Assembly: GCA_019058315.1 (NCBI GenBank)
Contig: JAHPZH010000004.1
Span: 352,001-416,000, forward strand
Reading direction: 5' to 3'
Source: Candidatus Helarchaeota archaeon
GTDB lineage: Archaea; Asgardarchaeota; Lokiarchaeia; Helarchaeales; RDOG01
DNA: 64,000 nucleotides
The position numbers were made by a program, and so were the translations under genes. Each line of letters opens with the position of its first letter. Position 1 is the first letter of the stretch. Under the pieces are notes generated by a model. The model made no database searches and had not been told where the DNA came from. It saw only the letters and a list, made by a program, of their open reading frames with translations. Of this stretch, positions 43,417-60,600 are shown in pieces.

Positions 43417-46400
43417 TTATACCCCCTGAACCTTAATTTTTTTACAATATTTGATTACAGCATTGACTCCATGATCATAAACAATTTGATCAGATTTTGA
43501 TAAAGGGTTGTTAGATAAATCCAATTTCTTTAAACTTGAAAGGTCTTCTAATCCACTAATATTTTTAATCTGATTTCCATAAACTATAAATTGCTGTAAA
43601 TGTTTTAGATGTCCTAAATTTTCAATAATTTTAATATCATTTTTTCCGAGATTCAATCTTTTTAATTTAAACAACTTATGCAGACCACTAATTTTTGAAA
43701 TTCTATTATTGTGTAAATTTAGCACTTCTAATTTGGTTAGATCATCAAGTTCCTCTATTTTGGAGATTTGATTTAGAGACAAATCTAAAACACGTAAATA
43801 TGAGAAGTTAGAAATTATTTTTGGAATTTTTTCAAGAAAAAGGTTATTTAAATTAAGTCTTACTACATGACCATCATAATCCATCTCATAATCATATGAT
43901 CCTATACGATATTTTGTGATTAATTCCTGAATTATCTCTCCATCTTTAATCTCTTCTATTTCAGGTTTTTCTCCAGGTTTTATTATCTGATTTATTATTT
44001 CAAATTGGTACTGAATTTGTTGTGTTTCTATCCTTCTTTCAAATGAAGCAAAAACACCATATTCGGAATCATTTAATAGATAATTAGCTAAGTTTTTCGC
44101 TTCAAAATCAATAATGTCGGACAAAGGCATTATTTGATGGTCATAGAAGAAAGGAAATGAAAATAATCTATTAAATAATCCATCCAATTTATCATTTTTC
44201 CCTCCCACTATATAAAATACTCTCTCATTCCATTCACTATTTTTCCAATTTATATCAGTTTCGTCGAATTTGCTAGCTCTAAACATTAATAATAAATAAA
44301 AACGAAGTGGAACTCTATAAGCATCCATAAAATCATATATAAGCTCTCTATTCTCTGGACTTTCTATAGGTTTAGATTTTCCCTCTCCATAAGAACGATA
44401 ATGGAGTATTCCTCTTCCTGGCCAATATTTTGAAAATCCAACTTTACCCAAAGCTTCACTAGCTCTTTTTTCTAGATTGAAAAATAAATAATTTAATGCC
44501 ACATTATACCTATCTAGTGCTCGAGCACCATAAAATATAGCTGTAGTGGCATGCCGTTGATATTGACGACTTGAAAATCTATCCTCTGGGGGTAGTGCTT
44601 TTTTAACACCATCCCATGCTTCATCATCGCAATTCGCTTCTATAGATCTTAATTTTCCTATAATCTCATCAAATTTTTTCTCATTATCACCTTGAGATTC
44701 CTTTAAAATTTTCTCTTTAATATAATAAGCTGTTATAGCATAATCTAACTGTCTTAATACAAGCAAATTGACCTTTTTTGGAAAAATTTTATGTTTTTTT
44801 AATTGTAGAGTATAAAAGATACTTGATTTAATCTTACTAATTACCATTTCCCAAGCTATTGGGAATAATTTTCCTTCTTCTCTCGCTTTTTGAATTGCTT
44901 GACGTAATTTATCAGCTTCAGCAGCTTTTTGTTTTTGTATTTCTATTTCATAATCAGAAAGTTTTTCAATTTCAATGTTTAATTTACTAATGAATTCTAG
45001 GTCTTCGTCGAAAATTTCTCCACCCGCAAGTCTTAATTTATACACTTCAAACGTATAATACGAACGACCATCAACTTTGATAATATGTAAATTAAATTGT
45101 TCCCCTCTTTCTAATGACAATTTCTTTCCTGGTCCAAGATGAATTAATTGCTTAGTACCGTAAATAGTAACCGAGTAAATTCCTCTATATTTACTTATTC
45201 TATCGGACCCGATGTTTGTTCCTTTATAGAACACAAATCCTCCTTTTTTATACCTAATTAGAACCTCACAGTTATTGCAAATATACATTTTATTCTTTGT
45301 AGGCATTCTTAGAGTCCCTGATTTACGACAATTGGGACATATGATTTTATCTTGTTCATCCTTGTTGAATTTATTAAAAGGATGATAATTTCGGGATTTA
45401 TATTTGAAATGAATACAAGCAGGTTCATTTTTTAACCGTCTCTTTTGTTTTTTTCGACAACAAGATTTGGGACCATCTTCCCTAACTTTTATGGAATTTG
45501 CGATAAAAAATTCACATTCTTGGCAAAAAATCCGTTCTTTCTCCTCAGGTTTCATTCCTGCTAAATAATAACGCTTAGACGGACGCCCCTTTATTATCAG
45601 GTCAAACGAAAATTCCAAATCTTTACTAATTTTGTCCAATTGATACCAAATAGCAGATTTCTTAATATTATTATATTTACGCTTTAATATATGATGTAAT
45701 TCTTTTATTGTCGCCCCTTTTTTTCCACTATTTCCCAATTCTTCTTTTATAGAATCCAGATATATCGAACTTCCATGTTTCTTCCTACGTGTGCGTTTAG
45801 AAACATGAAAATGAATTGTGTCTTTATCATCATTATATCGTTCAATTATATATCTAATCCGCCAAAATATTGGTTTATTTTCTTTTAAATTTAATATTTT
45901 CTTCTCGTCTATATCATGATAGTTTTTTCTCCCTAGGGCAATAGAATGAAATAATCTAGCAGCCTTAATAACATACGTTGAACAGAAAAACCATATTCCA
46001 GTTTTTCTACAAACTTCTACATCTCCCCCAAAATACTTATTTTTTTTAATAAATTTTTTATTTTTTAGTTTATTTTGAGAATATTTTTGGATTATTATTT
46101 TATATTTATTATTCTCTCGTTCAATATACTCTTGTGAAATTACACCCTTATATTGTGAAATTATTTCTTCCGCATGAGATTCACCAATTATTTCACCAAT
46201 TCTAAGTATGATCTCCTTACTCTTGGGTTTTTCATTTTGGTTAAAAAAGTCTAAAATTTGCATAAACGCTTTTCTATTTAGCTGAGTCTCTACAAGGCCC
46301 TCCCCTAGATAAGTTAGAGCATATTTTTTCTTAACATCCCGAATTAAATTCCTATTTTTTTTCATCAGTTCTTTATTCTTTACTGGAACTAGATCGGGCA

Positions 46401-47835
46401 TCAAGGATTTTAAAATCAGATCAAGGGGTTTTACATCGATACAGAAAGTTATTGATAATATGAAAGGCACTCGAAACATATATTCTACAAATTTATCGGG
46501 ATGCAAGACTTTCTCAAGATGCTCCATAATCTGAGCTTTTGAACGCTGACGTAAAAATAAATATTCAAGAATAATTTTTGGCAAATCTTTAATCGTTATT
46601 TGGCTATTTATTGCTTCTAGTGTATAACCCCGGAAAATTGTTTTATTTTTATCTAGAAATTTGACACTCTTTTTAAAGTCCTGATAATCTCTATAATACA
46701 TTAAATGAACTATTGTACCTAATAATTCTCTACATCTACCAATTATTTGTTCAAGCTCAATTTTTGAATATTTTTCAGGATCAGCTATAATTATTTCTTC
46801 AATATCCTTTACATCTACACCAGCTTCTAAAATGGGGCTACAACTCAAAATTTTGATTTTACCTGAATTAAAACTATCGAAAATTTGCTTTTTTTCATAA
46901 GTCGCAAGCCCTGCATGAATAAATCCGAAGATTTCAATATTATAACCTTTAAATTTTTCTTTGAGATGGTCTGAAATTTCCTGAGCTTTTTCTCTTGATT
47001 TGATAAAAATTAATAATTTAGCTTTTATTACTTCTCTATATTTTCTTAAGAAATTCCTGACTAATCCTGTAATTTCATCAAGTGGGGGATCACTTGCTTT
47101 TTGATGTAATTCAAATTTGAATTTGCGATTAGATGGATAGTAAAGTAATTCTGAACCAAATCTTTCCGACCAATATTCAGCAGATTCACGGTCAAATGTT
47201 CCAGTTAGAAAGCAAAAAAGAGGTCTGCTTTTCTTATTATCGAAATATTCAAATTTTAACTTATAAATCATGGTCTCTAATTTCATTCCCCTAGAAGGGT
47301 CTCTAATAGTATGGATTTCATCTACTATTATTGCTCCAAAAATGTCTTTTCTGTCAAACAACTCATATTTTTGAATTCGAAATAAAAAAGCTCGAAACGC
47401 TTCATAAGTACAAAGGAGAACTACTCGCCGATCTCTTTCTTTAGGTTTTTTCTTACTTTTACGGTCTTGTTGCCCTTTCTTCATTTTTGGTCTTAATTCT
47501 AATAGGTCTGGTCTTGATTCACCGACTAGTTTTAATATTTTAACCTTACTCCCAAAAAACCACCTTAACTCCTTTTCCTTTTGATATACCAACGTAGTAG
47601 TTGGTTCGAGTATAACACCTATTTTTCCTTCATCTGTTCCGACATAAAGGCCAATAAAAGCAACCCAAGTCTTTCCAGAATTTGTTGGGGCACAAAGAAA
47701 TATACTTATACCAGACAATAATTTATAAATCGCCAATTTTTGACTTTCAAATAAATCTGCAGTTGTAACACCATTTCTACGTGCGAATTGATCAAGTAGA
47801 TAAAGTAATTCGCTTCTATTTTTTAATAAAGCTAT
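43417..47835 (-). CDS. cas1: SF2 (Ski2/Hel308-like) helicase - HTH - Cys clusters - Cas1 - LRR fusion
   Basis: Helicase: Q motif LFESQ, APTNSGKT, DEIH, TGT, IFIKSR, HAGL, LEAGVD, QIIGR. Cas1: 'LRSIEA', 'DRYNVALNYLF', 'GILH', 'LIYDFMDAYR'. C-terminal SDS22 LRRs. Confidence 0.8.
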   Translation of the reverse strand: MALLKNRSELLYLLDQFARRNGVTTADLFESQKLAIYKLLSGISIFLCAPTNSGKTWVAFIGLYVGTDEGKIGVILEPTTTLVYQKEKELRWFFGSKVKILKLVGESRPDLLELRPKMKKGQQDRKSKKKPKERDRRVVLLCTYEAFRAFLFRIQKYELFDRKDIFGAIIVDEIHTIRDPSRGMKLETMIYKLKFEYFDNKKSRPLFCFLTGTFDRESAEYWSERFGSELLYYPSNRKFKFELHQKASDPPLDEITGLVRNFLRKYREVIKAKLLIFIKSREKAQEISDHLKEKFKGYNIEIFGFIHAGLATYEKKQIFDSFNSGKIKILSCSPILEAGVDVKDIEEIIIADPEKYSKIELEQIIGRCRELLGTIVHLMYYRDYQDFKKSVKFLDKNKTIFRGYTLEAINSQITIKDLPKIILEYLFLRQRSKAQIMEHLEKVLHPDKFVEYMFRVPFILSITFCIDVKPLDLILKSLMPDLVPVKNKELMKKNRNLIRDVKKKYALTYLGEGLVETQLNRKAFMQILDFFNQNEKPKSKEIILRIGEIIGESHAEEIISQYKGVISQEYIERENNKYKIIIQKYSQNKLKNKKFIKKNKYFGGDVEVCRKTGIWFFCSTYVIKAARLFHSIALGRKNYHDIDEKKILNLKENKPIFWRIRYIIERYNDDKDTIHFHVSKRTRRKKHGSSIYLDSIKEELGNSGKKGATIKELHHILKRKYNNIKKSAIWYQLDKISKDLEFSFDLIIKGRPSKRYYLAGMKPEEKERIFCQECEFFIANSIKVREDGPKSCCRKKQKRRLKNEPACIHFKYKSRNYHPFNKFNKDEQDKIICPNCRKSGTLRMPTKNKMYICNNCEVLIRYKKGGFVFYKGTNIGSDRISKYRGIYSVTIYGTKQLIHLGPGKKLSLERGEQFNLHIIKVDGRSYYTFEVYKLRLAGGEIFDEDLEFISKLNIEIEKLSDYEIEIQKQKAAEADKLRQAIQKAREEGKLFPIAWEMVISKIKSSIFYTLQLKKHKIFPKKVNLLVLRQLDYAITAYYIKEKILKESQGDNEKKFDEIIGKLRSIEANCDDEAWDGVKKALPPEDRFSSRQYQRHATTAIFYGARALDRYNVALNYLFFNLEKRASEALGKVGFSKYWPGRGILHYRSYGEGKSKPIESPENRELIYDFMDAYRVPLRFYLLLMFRASKFDETDINWKNSEWNERVFYIVGGKNDKLDGLFNRLFSFPFFYDHQIMPLSDIIDFEAKNLANYLLNDSEYGVFASFERRIETQQIQYQFEIINQIIKPGEKPEIEEIKDGEIIQELITKYRIGSYDYEMDYDGHVVRLNLNNLFLEKIPKIISNFSYLRVLDLSLNQISKIEELDDLTKLEVLNLHNNRISKISGLHKLFKLKRLNLGKNDIKIIENLGHLKHLQQFIVYGNQIKNISGLEDLSSLKKLDLSNNPLSKSDQIVYDHGVNAVIKYCKKIKVQGV

Positions 47836-48199: not shown

Positions 48200-50590
48200 A
48201 TGAGAAATAACATTAAAAAAAAGCGCTTCTTAACAATATTTCTAGTTTTTATTATATTTTCCTTTATCATTTTTGAATTTTCACCAAAAAAATATTTTCA
48301 ATTCAATTCATTTAATGATAGGGGTCAAAAAAACCATTTTATTATACCTATAACAGATTTACAGGATTTTTTTGAGTTAGATACCAATTCATATATTTGG
48401 ACACAAACACAAGTTGTTTCCATTGAAAGCTCTGATAGTATACTTGATTTATCATTATTTATAGACGATTCTGACATTTTACATCTCGCTTGGAGTGATT
48501 ATACAGATTATCAAGGATCAGGAGAAGATGCGGATTATCTTTATAAAAGTTGTAATAGTACTTCAGGAATTTGGACACCAGCTGAGGTAATTTCCACAGA
48601 AAGTGCAAACCGTTCTCACTTTGGAAATATTGATGTAGATAAATTTGGTAATATAAATATTGCTTGGTGTGATATTACTGATTACGGGGGTGCAGGAATA
48701 GATTATGATATATTTTATAAATATAAAGACGCTAACACAGGTCTTTGGACTATTACTGAGGTTATTACCTCAGGGGCTGTTAATTCATCTGCCGATCCAG
48801 AAATTCGATCAGATAATTTTGGAAACTTGCATATGGTATGGTATGATTCTACAGACTATGGAGGAACTGGTTCAGATATTGATATCTTCTATAAATTTCG
48901 CAATCACACTACTGGTACGTGGTCTATAATTGAACTAGTTTCAACAAATACCACAGAAAATTCCATGTGGCCCGATATGACTTTAGATGAATTTGGAAAT
49001 GTTCATGTAGTTTGGGAAGAATGGAACAGTTCTGGACTTGAATATAATATTTTTTATAAAATGCGCAATTTTACAACAGGAAATTGGACAAAAATTGAGG
49101 AAGTTTCAACAGAAAGTTCTGATTTTTCCGAAGCTCCTGCTATATCAGTTGATTCTTCTGGTAATATACATGTTGTTTGGAGAGATAAAATGGATTATAT
49201 GGGTGCTGGTATAGATGAGGATATATTCTATAAGCAAAAGTATACAAACAATAATAGTTGGTCTGCTGCTGTATTAGTTTCTGATGGGTGTAATAAAGTT
49301 TCTAGTTCTCCTGAAATCTTTATGGGTAATGATGGAAAATTACATTTTGTATGGAGAGATGATACTGAATATAATGGAGCAGGAGGAGATTGTGATATCT
49401 TCTATAAATGTTTAGATTTAAATAATAATGAGTGGTCGACGAAAGAAGTGGTTTCCACTGAAAGTACTGCCAGCTCCTCATATCCAAAGCTCGCTGTAGA
49501 TGGTTTGGGAGTAATTCATGTAGTTTGGTTGGATGGCACGAATTATAATGGTTCAGGTGCGGATTCTGATGTCTTTTATAAGAAAAAAATTAAATTTACC
49601 CCACAAAATAATGAAGATCCAGATTATAGTCTCCCATTTTATACAACACCACCAACTTATAGATTTTGGCCTTATTTAATTTTAATGTTTATCGTTTTAT
49701 TGATCCCCTTACCTTTTATGATATATAAAAAATATTCTTCCAAATCCTCTCAACTGATTTTTGATAAAACATCACCTGAACAAAGAACATTATTTAGATC
49801 AAAATTAGATAGTTATCCATTATATAGAGAGGAATTACCATTTGAACAATTTGAAAAAACCTATGAAAAAGATAAAGTAAAGCATATAGATAGAAAATCA
49901 ATTGATTACTCAATAAAGGTTAAAAAAACTGAAACTAAAAAATCATTAGTTCCACGTTCGCCAAGGGTTTCACCACTAAGCTCGAAATTAAAGAGATATT
50001 CAATGTACAAAGAAGATGTTCCCTTTGAAAAATTAAAAAAAGCCTATTTAGAAAATAAAGCAAATGATCTTGACAAAAAATCTATTGAAGAATCAATAAC
50101 AGATAAAAAAATTAAAACCGAAAAACCATTAATTTCACATTCATTAGAAGAACAAAGCTCTCTTATTCTAGCCCTCAAGGATGAGAATATTTTTATACGT
50201 ATTAATGCTGCTAAAGAGCTCGGAAAATTTAATGATATAAAATCAAGTTACGTACTAATTAATGCCTTTAAAAACAACATTGAAAATAAAGAAGTTCAAA
50301 ATGCGGTGGAGTTATCTCTAATAAAAATTGGCGAAACAGCAGTAAAGCCATTACTTGATTTAATCAAAGGTTTGGAAATAAGCCTATTAACTAGCTCCTT
50401 TTTTAGAACAGATTTGTTATTTTTCGTTTTTAGAGTATTAAAAACAATTGCTACTAATAAAGTAGGGAAAAAAGCTGTAGACAAAATCCCGTTTAGAGAT
50501 GAACATCTTTATATTTCACGATTTCATCAATTAGCTCATAGAGCTAGATTATTTGCAGAAATAATAATTGGTAAATCAAAAAATTCGTGA
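48200..50590 (+). CDS. single-pass membrane protein: extracellular 7-blade beta-propeller, cytoplasmic repeat, HEAT repeats
   Basis: Signal peptide; seven 'IHVVW.D...DIFYK' units; TM helix; two SKL..Y..Y.E..PFE repeats; 'RINAAKELG' HEAT. Confidence 0.75.
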   Translation: MRNNIKKKRFLTIFLVFIIFSFIIFEFSPKKYFQFNSFNDRGQKNHFIIPITDLQDFFELDTNSYIWTQTQVVSIESSDSILDLSLFIDDSDILHLAWSDYTDYQGSGEDADYLYKSCNSTSGIWTPAEVISTESANRSHFGNIDVDKFGNINIAWCDITDYGGAGIDYDIFYKYKDANTGLWTITEVITSGAVNSSADPEIRSDNFGNLHMVWYDSTDYGGTGSDIDIFYKFRNHTTGTWSIIELVSTNTTENSMWPDMTLDEFGNVHVVWEEWNSSGLEYNIFYKMRNFTTGNWTKIEEVSTESSDFSEAPAISVDSSGNIHVVWRDKMDYMGAGIDEDIFYKQKYTNNNSWSAAVLVSDGCNKVSSSPEIFMGNDGKLHFVWRDDTEYNGAGGDCDIFYKCLDLNNNEWSTKEVVSTESTASSSYPKLAVDGLGVIHVVWLDGTNYNGSGADSDVFYKKKIKFTPQNNEDPDYSLPFYTTPPTYRFWPYLILMFIVLLIPLPFMIYKKYSSKSSQLIFDKTSPEQRTLFRSKLDSYPLYREELPFEQFEKTYEKDKVKHIDRKSIDYSIKVKKTETKKSLVPRSPRVSPLSSKLKRYSMYKEDVPFEKLKKAYLENKANDLDKKSIEESITDKKIKTEKPLISHSLEEQSSLILALKDENIFIRINAAKELGKFNDIKSSYVLINAFKNNIENKEVQNAVELSLIKIGETAVKPLLDLIKGLEISLLTSSFFRTDLLFFVFRVLKTIATNKVGKKAVDKIPFRDEHLYISRFHQLAHRARLFAEIIIGKSKNS

Positions 50591-50615
50591 TTAAATTATC
50601 TTTGAAAGATATAAA

Positions 50616-50830
50616 TTCAAAAAAATGATGCCTTTTTCTAAACACTTTTCAAAAAATCGATATTATAAAAAATTGATCAAAAAGGAGTTTATTGATCAAA
50701 AAAAATTCTATGCAGTTTTCTAAACGCTTTTTAAAAAATTGTATTTTACTAGGTGATTTTTGATCAAAAAAATTTCTATGCAGTCTTCTAAACGATTTTC
50801 GAAAAATTGAACTTTTCAGGATCAAAAAAA
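50616..50830. repeat. degenerate ~68-bp tandem repeat (about 3 units) with TTGATCAA palindromes
   Basis: ttgatcaaaaaaa.ttctatgcagt.ttctaaacg.tttt..aaaaattg at 50692 and 50760; a more degenerate unit near 50616. Confidence 0.7.
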
Positions 50831-51685
50831 ATTTTCATTTTTACTGAAATCAAAGAGATCCCTTAACTATAAGAATTGAGATAAATTATAAAAATTTGTA
50901 ATTAAATAACCTGATTTAAGTGGAAAATAGAATAAAAAAATTAGTTATTGAATAAGTATAAGTTTCTTAATTTCATTTACTAAATTTAAAATTTTTAATT
51001 TATTACAATGTTATGTTGTTTAACGCTGAAAAAAATGAGAGTTTCTACAAAAATATAGTTAAGTTAATCTTTGGATTTGAAAGAAGAATTTTAAAGAGTT
51101 ATAATTGAATCGCTATTAATTCTAAACATTAAATTGGAAAATATTTTTTAAATTTAAAGATGGAATAATGTTTTTCGATATTTATGTTCATAAGAAAGCT
51201 TCTTAATGATATTAAATTTAAAAACAATAAATAACTCTTAATTATTTTGTAAACTAAGTATATTTTTCTAATTTTATAATTTAAGCTAAAAAATTTTCAA
51301 ACTTCTAAATTCATTTAAATTAAATTTTAATTTTTATATTAGAAAGCTTATACAGCTAAAATTTTAATCAAAATTAAATAAACTCTTTTTAAATTAATTG
51401 GCTTATTAAATTTGTGATTGCTTAATAATAATTCAAATTAAAGTATATACCAGAATACTTAATTATAATTTAAGAAAATTTATATAAAATTTTCGTTTAA
51501 TTTGAATAAAGTCGATAATAATCAGCCTTGATATCCTCATTCGATGAAAAAATTTATTTAATAAATTTTTCTTTTTTTACTAAGAAATTTTTAAATTAAT
51601 GATAAAAACTTCTTTTTAATAAAATTTTAAAGATATTAAAATTGTTATCTTTTCTATTTTCTGCCCAAATTCCTACCCGAACCGT

Positions 51686-51731
51686 CTAAATAACCAGTTT
51701 TAGGGGTGTTTAAATATAGAATTAACAGTTA
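51686..51731 (+). promoter_or_regulatory. putative promoter/operator of the RAMP operon
   Basis: TTTAAATA box plus TAACaGTTA palindrome; 41/46 identical to 54052-54097 and 60361-60406. Confidence 0.7.
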
Positions 51732-51773: not shown

Positions 51774-52619
51774 TTGAAAACAATAAATGTGGTTTTTTTA
51801 TGTGAATCAATAACAACAAGACAAGATCTCTTTGTCACCTTTGGAAATAGTCATGGAATCTTTGATCAAAAAAAGTTATCGGGGTATACTAAACTTGGTC
51901 GCATACCTGGTAAGACCTTGAAAGGTTGGTTAAGACATGGAATGGAAAAACTATTGTTGAAAATGGGAATATCTATTTGTCATCCTCTACCTGCAAATAC
52001 GATAACAAACGAGAGGAATAAAAAATATTATAAAGAAGATATGGCAATCGGTTACCATCCACGAGGAGAATGTGAAAAACAAGGCGGATGTCCGATATAT
52101 AATATGTTTGGGGATTTAGATAAACCAAGTAATTTAATTGTTCCCAGTGTTTATTTTTATCCTTCAGTTGGAGGCGGAACAATGGCAGCTAATATTAATA
52201 AAATTTTTGGATCTGTCGGAAGAGGAAGAATTGAAATTGACCATGAAAGTCCTAGAAAACGATCAAATAGTTTTCAAACATATATGAGCAACGAAACAAT
52301 TGTAGGAACTTATATTGAGGCACCTTGGAATCTTGTAATTCGAGAAGATAACGAACTTCATGAAATTTTAATTTTAAAAACTTTGGAATATCTCTTCGAA
52401 AAAAACACAAATTCCGATATGACATTTATGGTAGGCGGACAACGAACTGCTGGATGTGGAAGAGCTGTTGCGGTTAAATTAAATGATAGCGGAAATTATT
52501 TGATAAAAAATAGAAATTCCCTTGGTATAAAGCAAGAAAAAGTGGAGTTAATTAATGGAAAATTCGATGATTTCATGAAGGAGTTAAAAAAGAAATTTCC
52601 TATAAAGGCGGTAAAATAA
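51774..52619 (+). CDS. cas7: Cas7-like RAMP (HRAMP/Asgard-RAMP type)
   Basis: RIPGKTLKGWLRH, Cys/His insert ICHP..YHPRGEC....CPIYNMFG, G-rich loop VGGQRTAGCG. Confidence 0.85.
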   Translation: MKTINVVFLCESITTRQDLFVTFGNSHGIFDQKKLSGYTKLGRIPGKTLKGWLRHGMEKLLLKMGISICHPLPANTITNERNKKYYKEDMAIGYHPRGECEKQGGCPIYNMFGDLDKPSNLIVPSVYFYPSVGGGTMAANINKIFGSVGRGRIEIDHESPRKRSNSFQTYMSNETIVGTYIEAPWNLVIREDNELHEILILKTLEYLFEKNTNSDMTFMVGGQRTAGCGRAVAVKLNDSGNYLIKNRNSLGIKQEKVELINGKFDDFMKELKKKFPIKAVK

Positions 52620-52620
52620 A

Positions 52621-53328
52621 TTGGAATACAAAGTTTTAAGATTGCTCTTTGGATTCTTAAGCGAATATGTGGGAAATCCGCTCTATATCTCTGGAAATGC
52701 AATTCGCCATGCTTTTCATAAAAAAATTAATACATCGGTTGGATGTTTTACAGAATTAAGACGATTGGATGCAATAAATAGCTATGAAGCTTTTATTAAA
52801 ATCAGAATAGAGAAGCCTTTTTTAATACCTCACACTCAATCTTTTTTTTCTAAGATTGAAAGGAAGAAAAAACATCTAATTTATTTCACACCTACTTCAA
52901 TAACCTTCGATATTATTAATCCTCCTGAGAATCTTATTAATTTTATTAAAAATTTGAATATAATTCAGTTGGGTGGTTTAAGAAATGAAGGTTTTGGAGC
53001 TGTTGAACTTCTTGATCATCTACTTATTGATTTAAAAAAAATTGAATATCCTGATATTGGGACACATGTAACTCTTATATCACCAATATTATATGTTCCA
53101 AAATTTCTTGAAACTTATCAGTGTCGTCAGGAATATGTAATTTTTTGGAATAATAGTAAAAAAAATCGGATAAAAATAATCTCACCTGGACAATTTTTCA
53201 GAATAAAAAAGAATAAAAACATAAAAAAAATTGCAGAAAAAGGGATCTTACGCAAGGTTTTATTTGGTCAGTTCGGGTTTGGTGAATTCTTTGTTAATAA
53301 TTGGCCAAAGGAGGAGGAAAATGAATAA
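52621..53328 (+). CDS. cas5: Cas5-group RAMP with two G-rich loops
   Basis: YISGNAIRHA, QLGGLRNEGFG, LISP, C-terminal GQFGFGEF; 1-nt gap after cas7. Confidence 0.7.
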   Translation: MEYKVLRLLFGFLSEYVGNPLYISGNAIRHAFHKKINTSVGCFTELRRLDAINSYEAFIKIRIEKPFLIPHTQSFFSKIERKKKHLIYFTPTSITFDIINPPENLINFIKNLNIIQLGGLRNEGFGAVELLDHLLIDLKKIEYPDIGTHVTLISPILYVPKFLETYQCRQEYVIFWNNSKKNRIKIISPGQFFRIKKNKNIKKIAEKGILRKVLFGQFGFGEFFVNNWPKEEENE

Positions 53329-53998
53329 TATACTATCAATTCTACGACATGATCTTCATAAATTGAGGATAAAAGGATTTAAACCCCATAAAGAAGCCTT
53401 AGTTGAGCCTGAAATGAAAAAAGCAGATTCTATAGCCAGTTGGTTTTCAAGAAATGGCAATAAAATAGAGTTCGATATTAATAAAAGACTGTATTTGAGG
53501 GATTCTTATTTGATTAAAATTGAAAAAAATAAAATCAGAAATCAAATCATTAAAAAAAGAGAAGAAATTTTTAAAATTTTTAATGAAAAAAATCCTACAA
53601 AATTACATTCTCAGATTTTAAACTCAAAGGTTCTAAATAAATTTTCAGAGGCACGAATTTGCCCCCATAGTAGCTATAAATATCATTTGCTTTTAACTTG
53701 CAGTATTTATTGGAATTTGAAAAATAGTAATTGTTGGCAAAAATTATATTTAGCAGAAAATGCCGAAATTGATAGTCCGTTTCAGATTATCTACAAAGAT
53801 GATCAACGTGAATGGGCACTTACTCCTAACGGAGGAATGTCCCGCGTTTTCCCACAGTTTTCTAGAACTTGGTTGAGACGTCAAACATTTAGTTTAGGAG
53901 GTGATGATCTCATCCTCGATGGACTCCTATCCCAAATCGGGAGTTGGAGTGCTGCACTTGCAACAATCGAGGATTGGAGAGAGCTTCAAAAACCATAA
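53321..53998 (+). CDS. third core gene of the HRAMP-like module (uncharacterised)
   Basis: ATG at 53321 after GGAGGAGG, overlapping the cas5 stop. 'YKYHLLL' and 'LDGLLSQIGSWSAAL..IED' resemble, from recall, the haloarchaeal HRAMP-associated protein. Confidence 0.65.
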   Translation: MNNILSILRHDLHKLRIKGFKPHKEALVEPEMKKADSIASWFSRNGNKIEFDINKRLYLRDSYLIKIEKNKIRNQIIKKREEIFKIFNEKNPTKLHSQILNSKVLNKFSEARICPHSSYKYHLLLTCSIYWNLKNSNCWQKLYLAENAEIDSPFQIIYKDDQREWALTPNGGMSRVFPQFSRTWLRRQTFSLGGDDLILDGLLSQIGSWSAALATIEDWRELQKP

Positions 53999-54036: not shown

Positions 54037-54217
54037 CAATGCATAGTACCACTAAATAACCAGTTTTCGGGGAATTTAACTATAAAATTAACAGTTAATC
54101 AAAGCTCTAAATAGAATAATCCTAAAAACAAAGTTACGTCTCGGTCTCAGCAGTGTAGACCGAAAAGAGGTAAAATCTGGAAATAGAAATTATCTCAATG
54201 TATAGTACAACTAAATA
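54037..54217 (+). repeat. 22-nt direct repeat pair (54037-54058, 54196-54217)
   Basis: CAATGCATAGTACCACTAAATA vs CAATGTATAGTACAACTAAATA (20/22); also at 60346 and 60505. Confidence 0.8.
54052..54106 (+). promoter_or_regulatory. second copy of the RAMP promoter, with no ORF downstream
   Basis: 41/46 identical to 51686-51731; 55/55 identical to 60361-60415. Confidence 0.7.
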
Positions 54218-54290
54218 TAAAGAACCATCTTTATGCATCATATCCAGAAGCGGATTCACTAAGTTTCTCAGTTCACTTTAATAACCTTAA
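54103..54290 (+). ncRNA. candidate structured RAMP-associated ncRNA (ends approximate)
   Basis: Hairpins at 54141-63, 54167-96 (GAAA loop), 54217-34 and 54242-55; differences from the 60.4-kb copy mostly preserve pairing. Confidence 0.55.
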
Positions 54291-60221: not shown

Positions 60222-60307
60222 ATTATTGGTGGGTCCTTTCTCAGATTGAGAGTTGGAGCGCTGTACTTGCAACGATCGAGGATTGGAGTGATCTTCAAGA
60301 AACTTAA
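60222..60307 (+). pseudogene. 3' remnant of the third RAMP-module gene
   Basis: VLSQIESWSAVLATIEDWSDLQET* vs LLSQIGSWSAALATIEDWRELQKP*. Confidence 0.85.
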
Positions 60308-60411
60308 ATATTGCATAGGAAAAATTTGCCTGACATAGTGCCTGACAATGCATAGTTCCACTAAATAACCAGTTTTCGGGGAATTTAACTATAAAATTAA
60401 CAGTTAATCAA

Positions 60412-60600
60412 AGCTTTAGATTGCTAAATATCAGAAACAAAGGTCTGTCCCAGTCTCAGCAGTGTAGATCGAAAAGAGATAAAATCTAGAAATAGAAATT
60501 ATCTCAATGTATAGTACAACTAAAGAAAGAGAGCTATCTTTATGTATCATATCCAGCAGAGGATTTGCCAAGTTTATTCAGTTCATTCTCATACTCTTAA
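60412..60600 (+). ncRNA. second copy of the candidate RAMP-associated ncRNA
   Basis: Promoter block 60361-60415 is intact; hairpins at 60476-60505, 60526-43 and 60551-64. Confidence 0.5.

Follow-up and report, generated by a model that had tools for sequence, protein, structure and literature searches.

A co-varying pair of 22-nt motifs in the closing non-coding module of a Helarchaeota ARAMP cassette

CRISPR repeats are read by their Cas proteins, and degenerate mini-arrays, such as CreA of CreTA and the Cas-regulating RNAs, regulate cas or toxin genes. Right-end (omega or re) RNAs belong to TnpB and IscB in IS200/IS605-type elements, and the ends of Tn7-like and CAST transposons carry repeated 22-bp transposase sites. 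CreTA and OMEGA are among the systems listed in one review (PMC8730458), and Tn7 elements of Asgard archaea are the subject of a preprint (bioRxiv 10.1101/2025.07.27.667033). The same review and a second one (PMC12669027) summarise the ARAMP and HRAMP systems of Makarova et al. 2020, CRISPR-like cassettes that derive from type III, lack an array and occur in Asgard archaea and haloarchaea; neither review mentions an RNA or repeat component for these cassettes.

The DNA analysed here (the window) is an AT-rich stretch of 64,000 nt from a Candidatus Helarchaeota archaeon. It contains a promoter block and three genes that fit a Helarchaeota ARAMP cassette, made up of a Cas7-like RAMP, a putative Cas5 and a mini-Cas10-like orf3, without an array:

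51686–51731, plus strand: promoter block of cas7, with CTAAATA, ACCAGTTTT and the TATA-like TTTAAATA at 51709–51716 (read directly; matches 54052–54097)
51774–52619, plus strand: Cas7-like RAMP gene (Pfam RAMPs PF03787, E 5.7e-07)
52621–53328, plus strand: putative Cas5-like second gene, 235 aa (position in the cassette)
53321–53998, plus strand: orf3, mini-Cas10-like, 225 aa (AlphaFold model and structural matches)

The Cas7-like protein scored 30.7 bits against PF03787, above the curated cut-off of 22.1, and its relatives came from Asgard genomes only. The second gene had no match in Pfam or NCBIfam and is putatively called Cas5-like from its position; in related loci, fragments homologous to it stand before orf3. 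For orf3, an AlphaFold model built on an alignment of 21 sequences (pLDDT 75, pTM 0.80) gave six top structural matches that were all Csm1/Cmr2 (Cas10) proteins, with Z falling from 9.7 to 4.8. The best of them (Z 9.7, rmsd 3.9, 202 aligned) spanned the whole length, and Foldseek again returned the Csm1/Cmr2 family, weakly (E 0.12). A Pfam run on 21 orf3 homologues gave nothing significant. The HDLHK near the N-terminus of orf3 is conserved; the GGDD found here is replaced by GGEH in the Hel_GB_A relatives, and conservation of cyclase or polymerase chemistry across the relatives is therefore unlikely. No recombinase or transposase gene was found by Pfam and NCBIfam in the 2.5-kb unit, and the region 43417–47736 gave helicase and LRR family matches only. 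Neither Tandem Repeats Finder in the window nor a k-mer spacing scan of the 12 genome contigs found a CRISPR array, the periodic matches of the scan being coding repeats only.

We class the locus as ARAMP because of its RAMP gene, its Cas10-like orf3, its Asgard host and the absence of an array, and close relatives of cas7 and orf3 sit on Helarchaeota MAG contigs. A diverged Cas7-like RAMP, a putative Cas5-like RAMP, the lack of an array, an Asgard host and type III origin, the last seen in the Csm1/Cmr2 matches of the orf3 model, are all shared with ARAMP and HRAMP. Unlike those systems, this three-gene unit gave no HNH or PD-(D/E)xK nuclease domain in the Pfam and NCBIfam searches, and it ends in a conserved module of hairpin and motif, the motif having a second copy that co-varies with the first. 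Since orf3 has a Cas10-like fold and the first gene is a RAMP, the genes next door would encode a complex that reads repeat-derived RNA. As a separate observation, the 1.1 kb upstream of the cas7 promoter (50590–51680) has 15–20% G+C and no ORF, and direct repeats of about 50–60 nt lie near 50690–50815 (GATCAAAAAAA..CTATGCAGT..TTCTAAACG).

The features of the closing module and of a duplicate locus further along the window are as follows:

54037–54058, plus strand: copy A of the motif, CAATGCATAGTACCACTAAATA (read directly)
54052–54097, plus strand: internal promoter-like block, with ACCAGTTTT and a TATA-like box at 54075–54082 (alignment with the cas7 promoter)
54141–54163, plus strand: hairpin H1 (RNA fold; in the duplicate one G-C pair has become A-U, a compensatory change)
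54167–54196, plus strand: hairpin H2, its 3′ strand abutting copy B (RNA fold)
54196–54217, plus strand: copy B of the motif, CAATGTATAGTACAACTAAATA (read directly)
about 54217–54234, plus strand: hairpin H3, flank outside the conserved unit (only in the segmental duplicate)
60234–60307, plus strand: remnant of orf3 in the duplicate locus, its last 23 codons (sequence comparison)
60346–60367, plus strand: copy A in the duplicate locus (degenerate motif search and A/B comparison across loci)
60505–60526, plus strand: copy B in the duplicate locus (degenerate motif search and A/B comparison across loci)

The initial annotation had reported that the linker following H2 repeats a stretch at the start of the internal promoter block, that both copies persist in the duplicate locus, and that the cas7 promoter shares the sequence CTAAATA alone with them. 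All of this was borne out. Read directly, A and B are identical at 20 of 22 positions, ungapped and on the same strand, with their starts 159 nt apart; A overlaps the first 7 nt of the block 54052–54097; a motif search recovered the copies at 60346 and 60505; and comparison with the block at 51686 left only CTAAATA in common between the cas7 promoter and the 22-nt motif. A degenerate 20-mer allowing up to three mismatches has four matches in the window (A, B and the two copies in the duplicate), compared with 0.06 expected from shuffles, and the same motif with up to two mismatches yields only those four in the whole 5.8-Mb, 12-contig genome. When the 332-nt intergenic stretch was shuffled 300 times, the best 22-mer direct repeat never exceeded 18/22. 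A chance origin of the match is ruled out by these genome-wide counts and shuffles. The pair is real and belongs to the closing non-coding module of the cassette.

The internal block matches the cas7 promoter block at 41 of 46 positions and is perfectly conserved in the duplicate locus. From archaeal TATA spacing, transcription of the module is predicted to start at about 54105. A cas7-promoter block paired with a module block was also found at loci L089, L102 and L111, and a AATAAGCCMGTT-TATA design is common to the cas7 promoter and the module block in four families, in three of which the block differs from the cas7 promoter of its locus by a 1-nt indel. Two degenerate repeats beside cas genes, enclosing a stretch that resembles a cas promoter, recall the regulatory mini-arrays, for which autoregulation would be the expected outcome, and a degenerate two-repeat mini-array had been put forward for this pair. 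The repeat-like behaviour of A and B fits that proposal; the insert does not, since at 59–137 nt, and with a promoter-like block carrying its own TATA-like box, it is far longer than a mini-array spacer (about 30–40 nt). The locus also departs from mini-arrays in the indels just mentioned, in a genome that offers no cognate CRISPR array for repeat comparison, and in an effector that is type III-like, not Cascade. Because of the indels in three families and the TATA-like box of the block itself, a duplicated promoter would be a sufficient explanation of the likeness between the blocks, one that appears to account for it equally well as the partial promoter match of a mini-array insert. Duplicated promoters also suit these observations better than a relation of guide to target would. 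A further CTAAATA stands at 54107–54113, at the predicted transcription start of the module (60424–60430 in the duplicate, shifted by 9 nt), and the 30 nt after it are the most diverged stretch between the window locus and its duplicate.

The segment from 53925 to about 55300 is duplicated from 60234 on, with 85% identity, and the duplicate is a relic. The outer stem of H2 is kept in it, with a G.U pair changed to A-U. A third copy lies on another contig of the genome (C11:50082–50502, minus strand) and consists of the last 86 codons of orf3, H1, H2 and B (CAATGAATAATACTACTAAATAA), without A and without a recognisable promoter block; in this copy the inner stem of H2 is replaced by a different complementary pair. 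It sits between a divergent methyltransferase-like gene and an FprA-like gene, upstream of the latter. Its relatives have different neighbours, so that an exact empty site is not definable. Hairpin H3 is absent after B both in the C11 copy and at every other locus. The arrangement of hairpin, 20 nt and hairpin, read in the initial annotation as a guide layout, fails because H3 is flank: homology stops right after B in C11 and in the related loci. What is conserved instead is a hairpin followed by a single-stranded 22-nt tail. An Rfam scan of the window gave one tRNA above threshold and nothing at the module.

An orf3 search found 13 copies in Hel_GB_A (G125) and one in a second genome (G128), and the orf3 alignment retrieved 18 loci from genomes and 55 from metagenomes. 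The A/B pair is present in most of the approximately 70 related loci, in a common order that runs from the orf3 stop through the 5′ arms of a long imperfect hairpin, A, the conserved GCCMGTT with a TATA-like box, a variable stretch and the 3′ arms to B, after which homology ends. Of the 38 unique loci that carry the promoter anchor, which served as the reference point, 33 show A and B matching without gaps at 13–20 of 22 positions, with starts 81–159 nt apart, that is, with an insert of 59–137 nt. The self-match had been expected to recur in homologues, with the linker and the upstream site changing together, and both expectations held. Among 17 family representatives, A and B of the same locus agree at 16.2 of 22 positions and A and B of different loci at 13.6 (reached by 0 of 10,000 permutations), in a test that is not tree-aware and draws on loci from related organisms that are partly non-independent. 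This co-variation argues that the pair is functional, or at least co-evolving, and not a matter of chance. The pair is kept across families whose cas proteins are only 43–50% identical.

Changes in step fall on columns 7, 9, 12, 14, 16 and 20, without indels. The ends of the motif, CAWTG and AAWAA, are nearly invariant, as are the first 8 nt as a whole (CAWTGYAT), and the body between them is specific to the family (ATAGTACMACTAAATA here, ATGGTATWGAKAATAA in Hel_GB_A, CTAGATTTATTAAAAA at L122 and TCTWGATAATA at L102 and L130). At column 6, A nearly always has C where B has T, and at columns 14 and 17 the difference between A and B is likewise conserved across families. These systematic differences suggest that A and B are under non-identical constraint. 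Several families, some with a full-length orf3, have the hairpin and B only, with neither A nor the TATA block. As B and the hairpin persist where A and the internal block are missing, B is the primary copy, and A accompanies the internal promoter block. At L096 (930–1199), beyond a full orf3, the repeat occurs three times in a 39-nt version with spacings of 111 and 120 nt, resembling a small array with long inserts, the first of which carries the palindrome ATTGAAAC-ACTG-GTTTCAAT. At another locus (L049, on G128:C75) a tRNA gene cluster takes the place of the hairpin and motif after an orf3 fragment that contains an in-frame TGA, and neither A nor B was recognised.

The arms around the two copies form two long helices in the common architecture. 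The 3′ strand of helix P1 lies directly against B and its 5′ strand ends 14–19 nt upstream of A; the 5′ strand of helix P2 lies directly against A. The sequences of P1 and P2 differ between families, complementarity being kept by compensatory changes, and the helices contain G.U pairs valid on the plus strand only. Arm duplexes within a locus had a mean of -21.5 kcal/mol compared with -11.9 across loci (0 of 10,000 permutations reached this). Conservation of P1 and P2 with plus-strand G.U pairs calls for a plus-strand RNA, or single-stranded DNA, that starts upstream of A, and in the case of RNA this would mean read-through from orf3. No intramolecular pairing partner for B was found at a consistent position across loci, where only weak energies were obtained, which suggests that B is a free tail. 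In this window the long helices P1 and P2 are absent and the local hairpin H2 alone precedes B; with H2 in their place, the architecture of this genome is a variant of the common one.

We favour, at a probability of roughly 0.4, a reading that treats A and B as pseudo-repeats recognised by a single factor from the cassette, giving feedback on the promoter of the module. Each would be a copy of one pseudo-repeat, about 22 nt long and specific to the family, in the non-coding module that closes the cassette. The primary copy, B, would serve as a terminal, handle-like single-stranded tail after a conserved hairpin; A would be a second, operator-like copy directly upstream of an internal, outward-facing promoter block that may have been copied from the cas7 promoter. 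We infer a single reader for both from the way the middle of the motif changes in step between fixed ends (CAWTG and AAWAA), and this reader would most plausibly be the RAMP/mini-Cas10 complex. It would bind B, either on DNA or as part of the transcript, as well as A, next to the promoter from which this transcript would arise, so that binding would couple the level of the complex to the output of the internal promoter and, through read-out, to the downstream sequence. Against this reading stand the differences between A and B at columns 6 (C as opposed to T), 14 and 17, the ability of gene conversion or repeated duplication to make linked repeats co-vary as well, and the replacement of P1 and P2 by a local hairpin in this genome.

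An unlikely alternative is RNA-guided self-targeting, in which the tail B would act as a fixed guide with which the RAMP complex pairs to the bottom strand of A, repressing or marking its own promoter. The layout of a hairpin followed by a free 22-nt tail would suit a guide, and so would the ungapped co-variation, which is concentrated in the middle and 3′ part of the motif behind a CAWTGYAT head that resembles a 5′ handle. If columns 1–8 are taken as the handle, the sole mismatch in the remaining 14 nt of the window pair falls on guide position 6, whose base is flipped out by class 1 backbones, and the C of A facing the T of B at column 6 would give an rU.dG wobble. A 6-nt register would put the mismatches between A and B at guide positions 6 and 12, however, and they are in fact commonest at 6 and 9, with position 12 changing in step instead of being free. 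The differences between A and B (columns 6, 14 and 17) are moreover conserved across families instead of being purged, B is kept in families without A, more than 20 relics carry B alone, and A in the sense transcript would be identical to B, not complementary to it. The effector also looks type III-like, and type III complexes are known to bind RNA and are not known to open double-stranded DNA. The conserved differences, the families without A and the nature of the effector thus speak against the original proposal that the linker is a guide targeting its own locus.

The same early proposal had considered that the pair marks the end of an element, and for copy B this was supported. Homology between independent copies stops exactly after B at more than 50 junctions, usually after AATAA and one further A. 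Hel_GB_A has 26 motif matches compared with 2 for a control pattern. The left limits of its copies fall in cas5, in orf3 or inside the module, the shortest copies retaining 15 nt and B or nothing but B, and relics that keep only B number more than 20; the full copies in Hel_GB_A share a sharp left limit 57 nt before the start of cas7. Among side observations, the 3.8-Mb MAG of Hel_GB_A holds at least 26 copies of the terminal motif (L149–L161, L039–L059), about half of them without an orf3 fragment and many at contig ends, as expected of an assembly-breaking repeat. At L006 and L064 (G125:C105 and C194) the left limit of homology is at TGTGTGACC, 9 nt before the TATA box, and in the C194 copy cas7 codon 100 runs directly into orf3 codon 160 as the result of an internal deletion. 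The idea that A and its block are a copy of a right-end/left-end junction fits the window, where CTAAATA occurs in both places, but does not fit Hel_GB_A, whose left boundary lies nearer to the TATA box, and was rejected.

Such an end invites a reading of A and B as DNA sites, with A a subterminal and B a terminal binding site of a mobilising machinery (a recombinase, a transposase or the nearby helicase), much as transposase sites are repeated in Tn7 or Mu ends and arm sites in att regions. We consider this decidedly unlikely. The exact right boundary at the many independent junctions, the excess of motif matches and the sharp left boundary in Hel_GB_A would be accounted for, and direct copies of about 22 bp, 81–159 bp apart and within about 150 bp of a precise end beside Cas genes, recall Tn7-like and CAST ends. 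In contrast to those, no inverted copies at the other end and no TnsB-like gene are seen here. Within 3 kb on the left side, none of five full loci has an inverted or direct copy of the motif, and no minus-strand copy at 16/22 or better lies upstream of cas7 in the window or in those five loci. No terminal inverted repeats were found, and no pattern of target-site duplication emerged over 20 junctions, with one suggestive case (L155, CGTTATT). The 2.5-kb unit brings no recombinase or transposase gene of its own, the short families move or persist without A, and the G.U pairs in the conserved helices point to RNA or single strands and not to duplex DNA.

It is less probable again that the likeness of A and B is a functionless by-product of history, left by a partial tandem duplication of motif and promoter and kept up by gene conversion, to which closely spaced direct repeats are prone. 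Upstream of both window copies a weak similarity continues (GGAAAAATTAGCT and GGAAATAGAAATTATCT), A followed by its block resembles a fusion of B with the promoter block of cas7, and L096 has three tandem units, as such a history would predict. Persistence of the pair between families with cas proteins as diverged as 43–50% identity is hard to reconcile with it, however, and conversion would erase the conserved A-type and B-type differences at columns 6, 14 and 17. Complementarity (P1/P2), not similarity, relates the stretches immediately before A and B in most families, so that a simple tandem duplication does not describe them.

The surroundings of the junctions could also suggest ordinary promoter architecture, with elements for host transcription factors and with B as a promoter or 5′ UTR element of the downstream gene. 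At about 27 of 33 usable junctions a co-directional gene follows B, with its start codon 2–120 nt away and often 2–30 nt, and relics with variable 5′ truncation stand directly upstream of housekeeping genes. The Hel_GB_A thiolase gene and its G123 orthologue align from precisely the ATG onwards, and synteny upstream of it is lost; the native TATA box, about 30 nt upstream of the ATG in G123, is gone, and the module sits in its place. Comparison of L162 (G125:C194) with L163 (G123:C169) shows the right end of the module fused 4 nt before, or exactly at, this ATG, and the G123 TATA box stands where a leaderless gene would have it. At three other junctions the translation start is 2, about 13 (with the junction before the SD) and about 27 nt away. 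Together with the place of A directly upstream of a TATA-bearing block, the position of B before start codons and the replaced thiolase promoter would suit this architecture. A site for a host factor should, however, be conserved across families, not family-specific and co-varying; B stands anywhere from 2 to more than 100 nt before the start codon; in this window B is followed by a convergent gene; and the motif is confined to ARAMP modules, occurring four times in this genome. We regard the reading as very unlikely. Its stricter form, B as a fixed core promoter for leaderless genes, was rejected, the distances to start codons being too variable. The junction pattern could reflect decay under selection for an outward promoter, a one-ended DNA process or an RNA-mediated process.

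The module shares with OMEGA right-end RNAs a structured non-coding stretch that follows the effector gene directly and reaches precisely to the right boundary of the unit, so that any read-through RNA would continue into the flank, as well as a presence in many copies, some without intact genes. Unlike OMEGA systems, it comes with no TnpB or IscB nuclease, no TnpA and no RuvC family match, and a left-end counterpart of the hairpin and motif was not found. We give little credence to an OMEGA-like logic on a class 1, type III-derived effector, in which the unit would be a mobile RNA-using element, possibly with an RNA-mediated copying step, whose 3′ end at B becomes fused to the 5′ ends of host genes at the start codon or transcription start, whose variably 5′-truncated copies replace host promoters with the outward promoter, and whose RAMP/mini-Cas10 complex would load the B handle with the adjoining flank or A as a fixed guide.

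ARAMP and HRAMP have been described as array-less CRISPR derivatives without a known RNA. Under the favoured reading, of pseudo-repeats with a common cassette-encoded reader, the A/B pair would be a concrete candidate for a recognition sequence in a system thought to lack one. In one ARAMP lineage this candidate element consists of a hairpin and then a 22-nt motif whose CAWTG head is invariant and whose body is specific to the family, and a second copy at the promoter of the module itself co-evolves with the first. Sequences for binding, pull-down and reporter experiments are now defined, as is the exact right end of the unit. Relics of the unit stand directly before housekeeping genes, and in one case the native promoter has been replaced up to the start codon. 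If this pattern holds, the cassettes would influence how host genes are expressed, and they may be mobile by a route not yet described.
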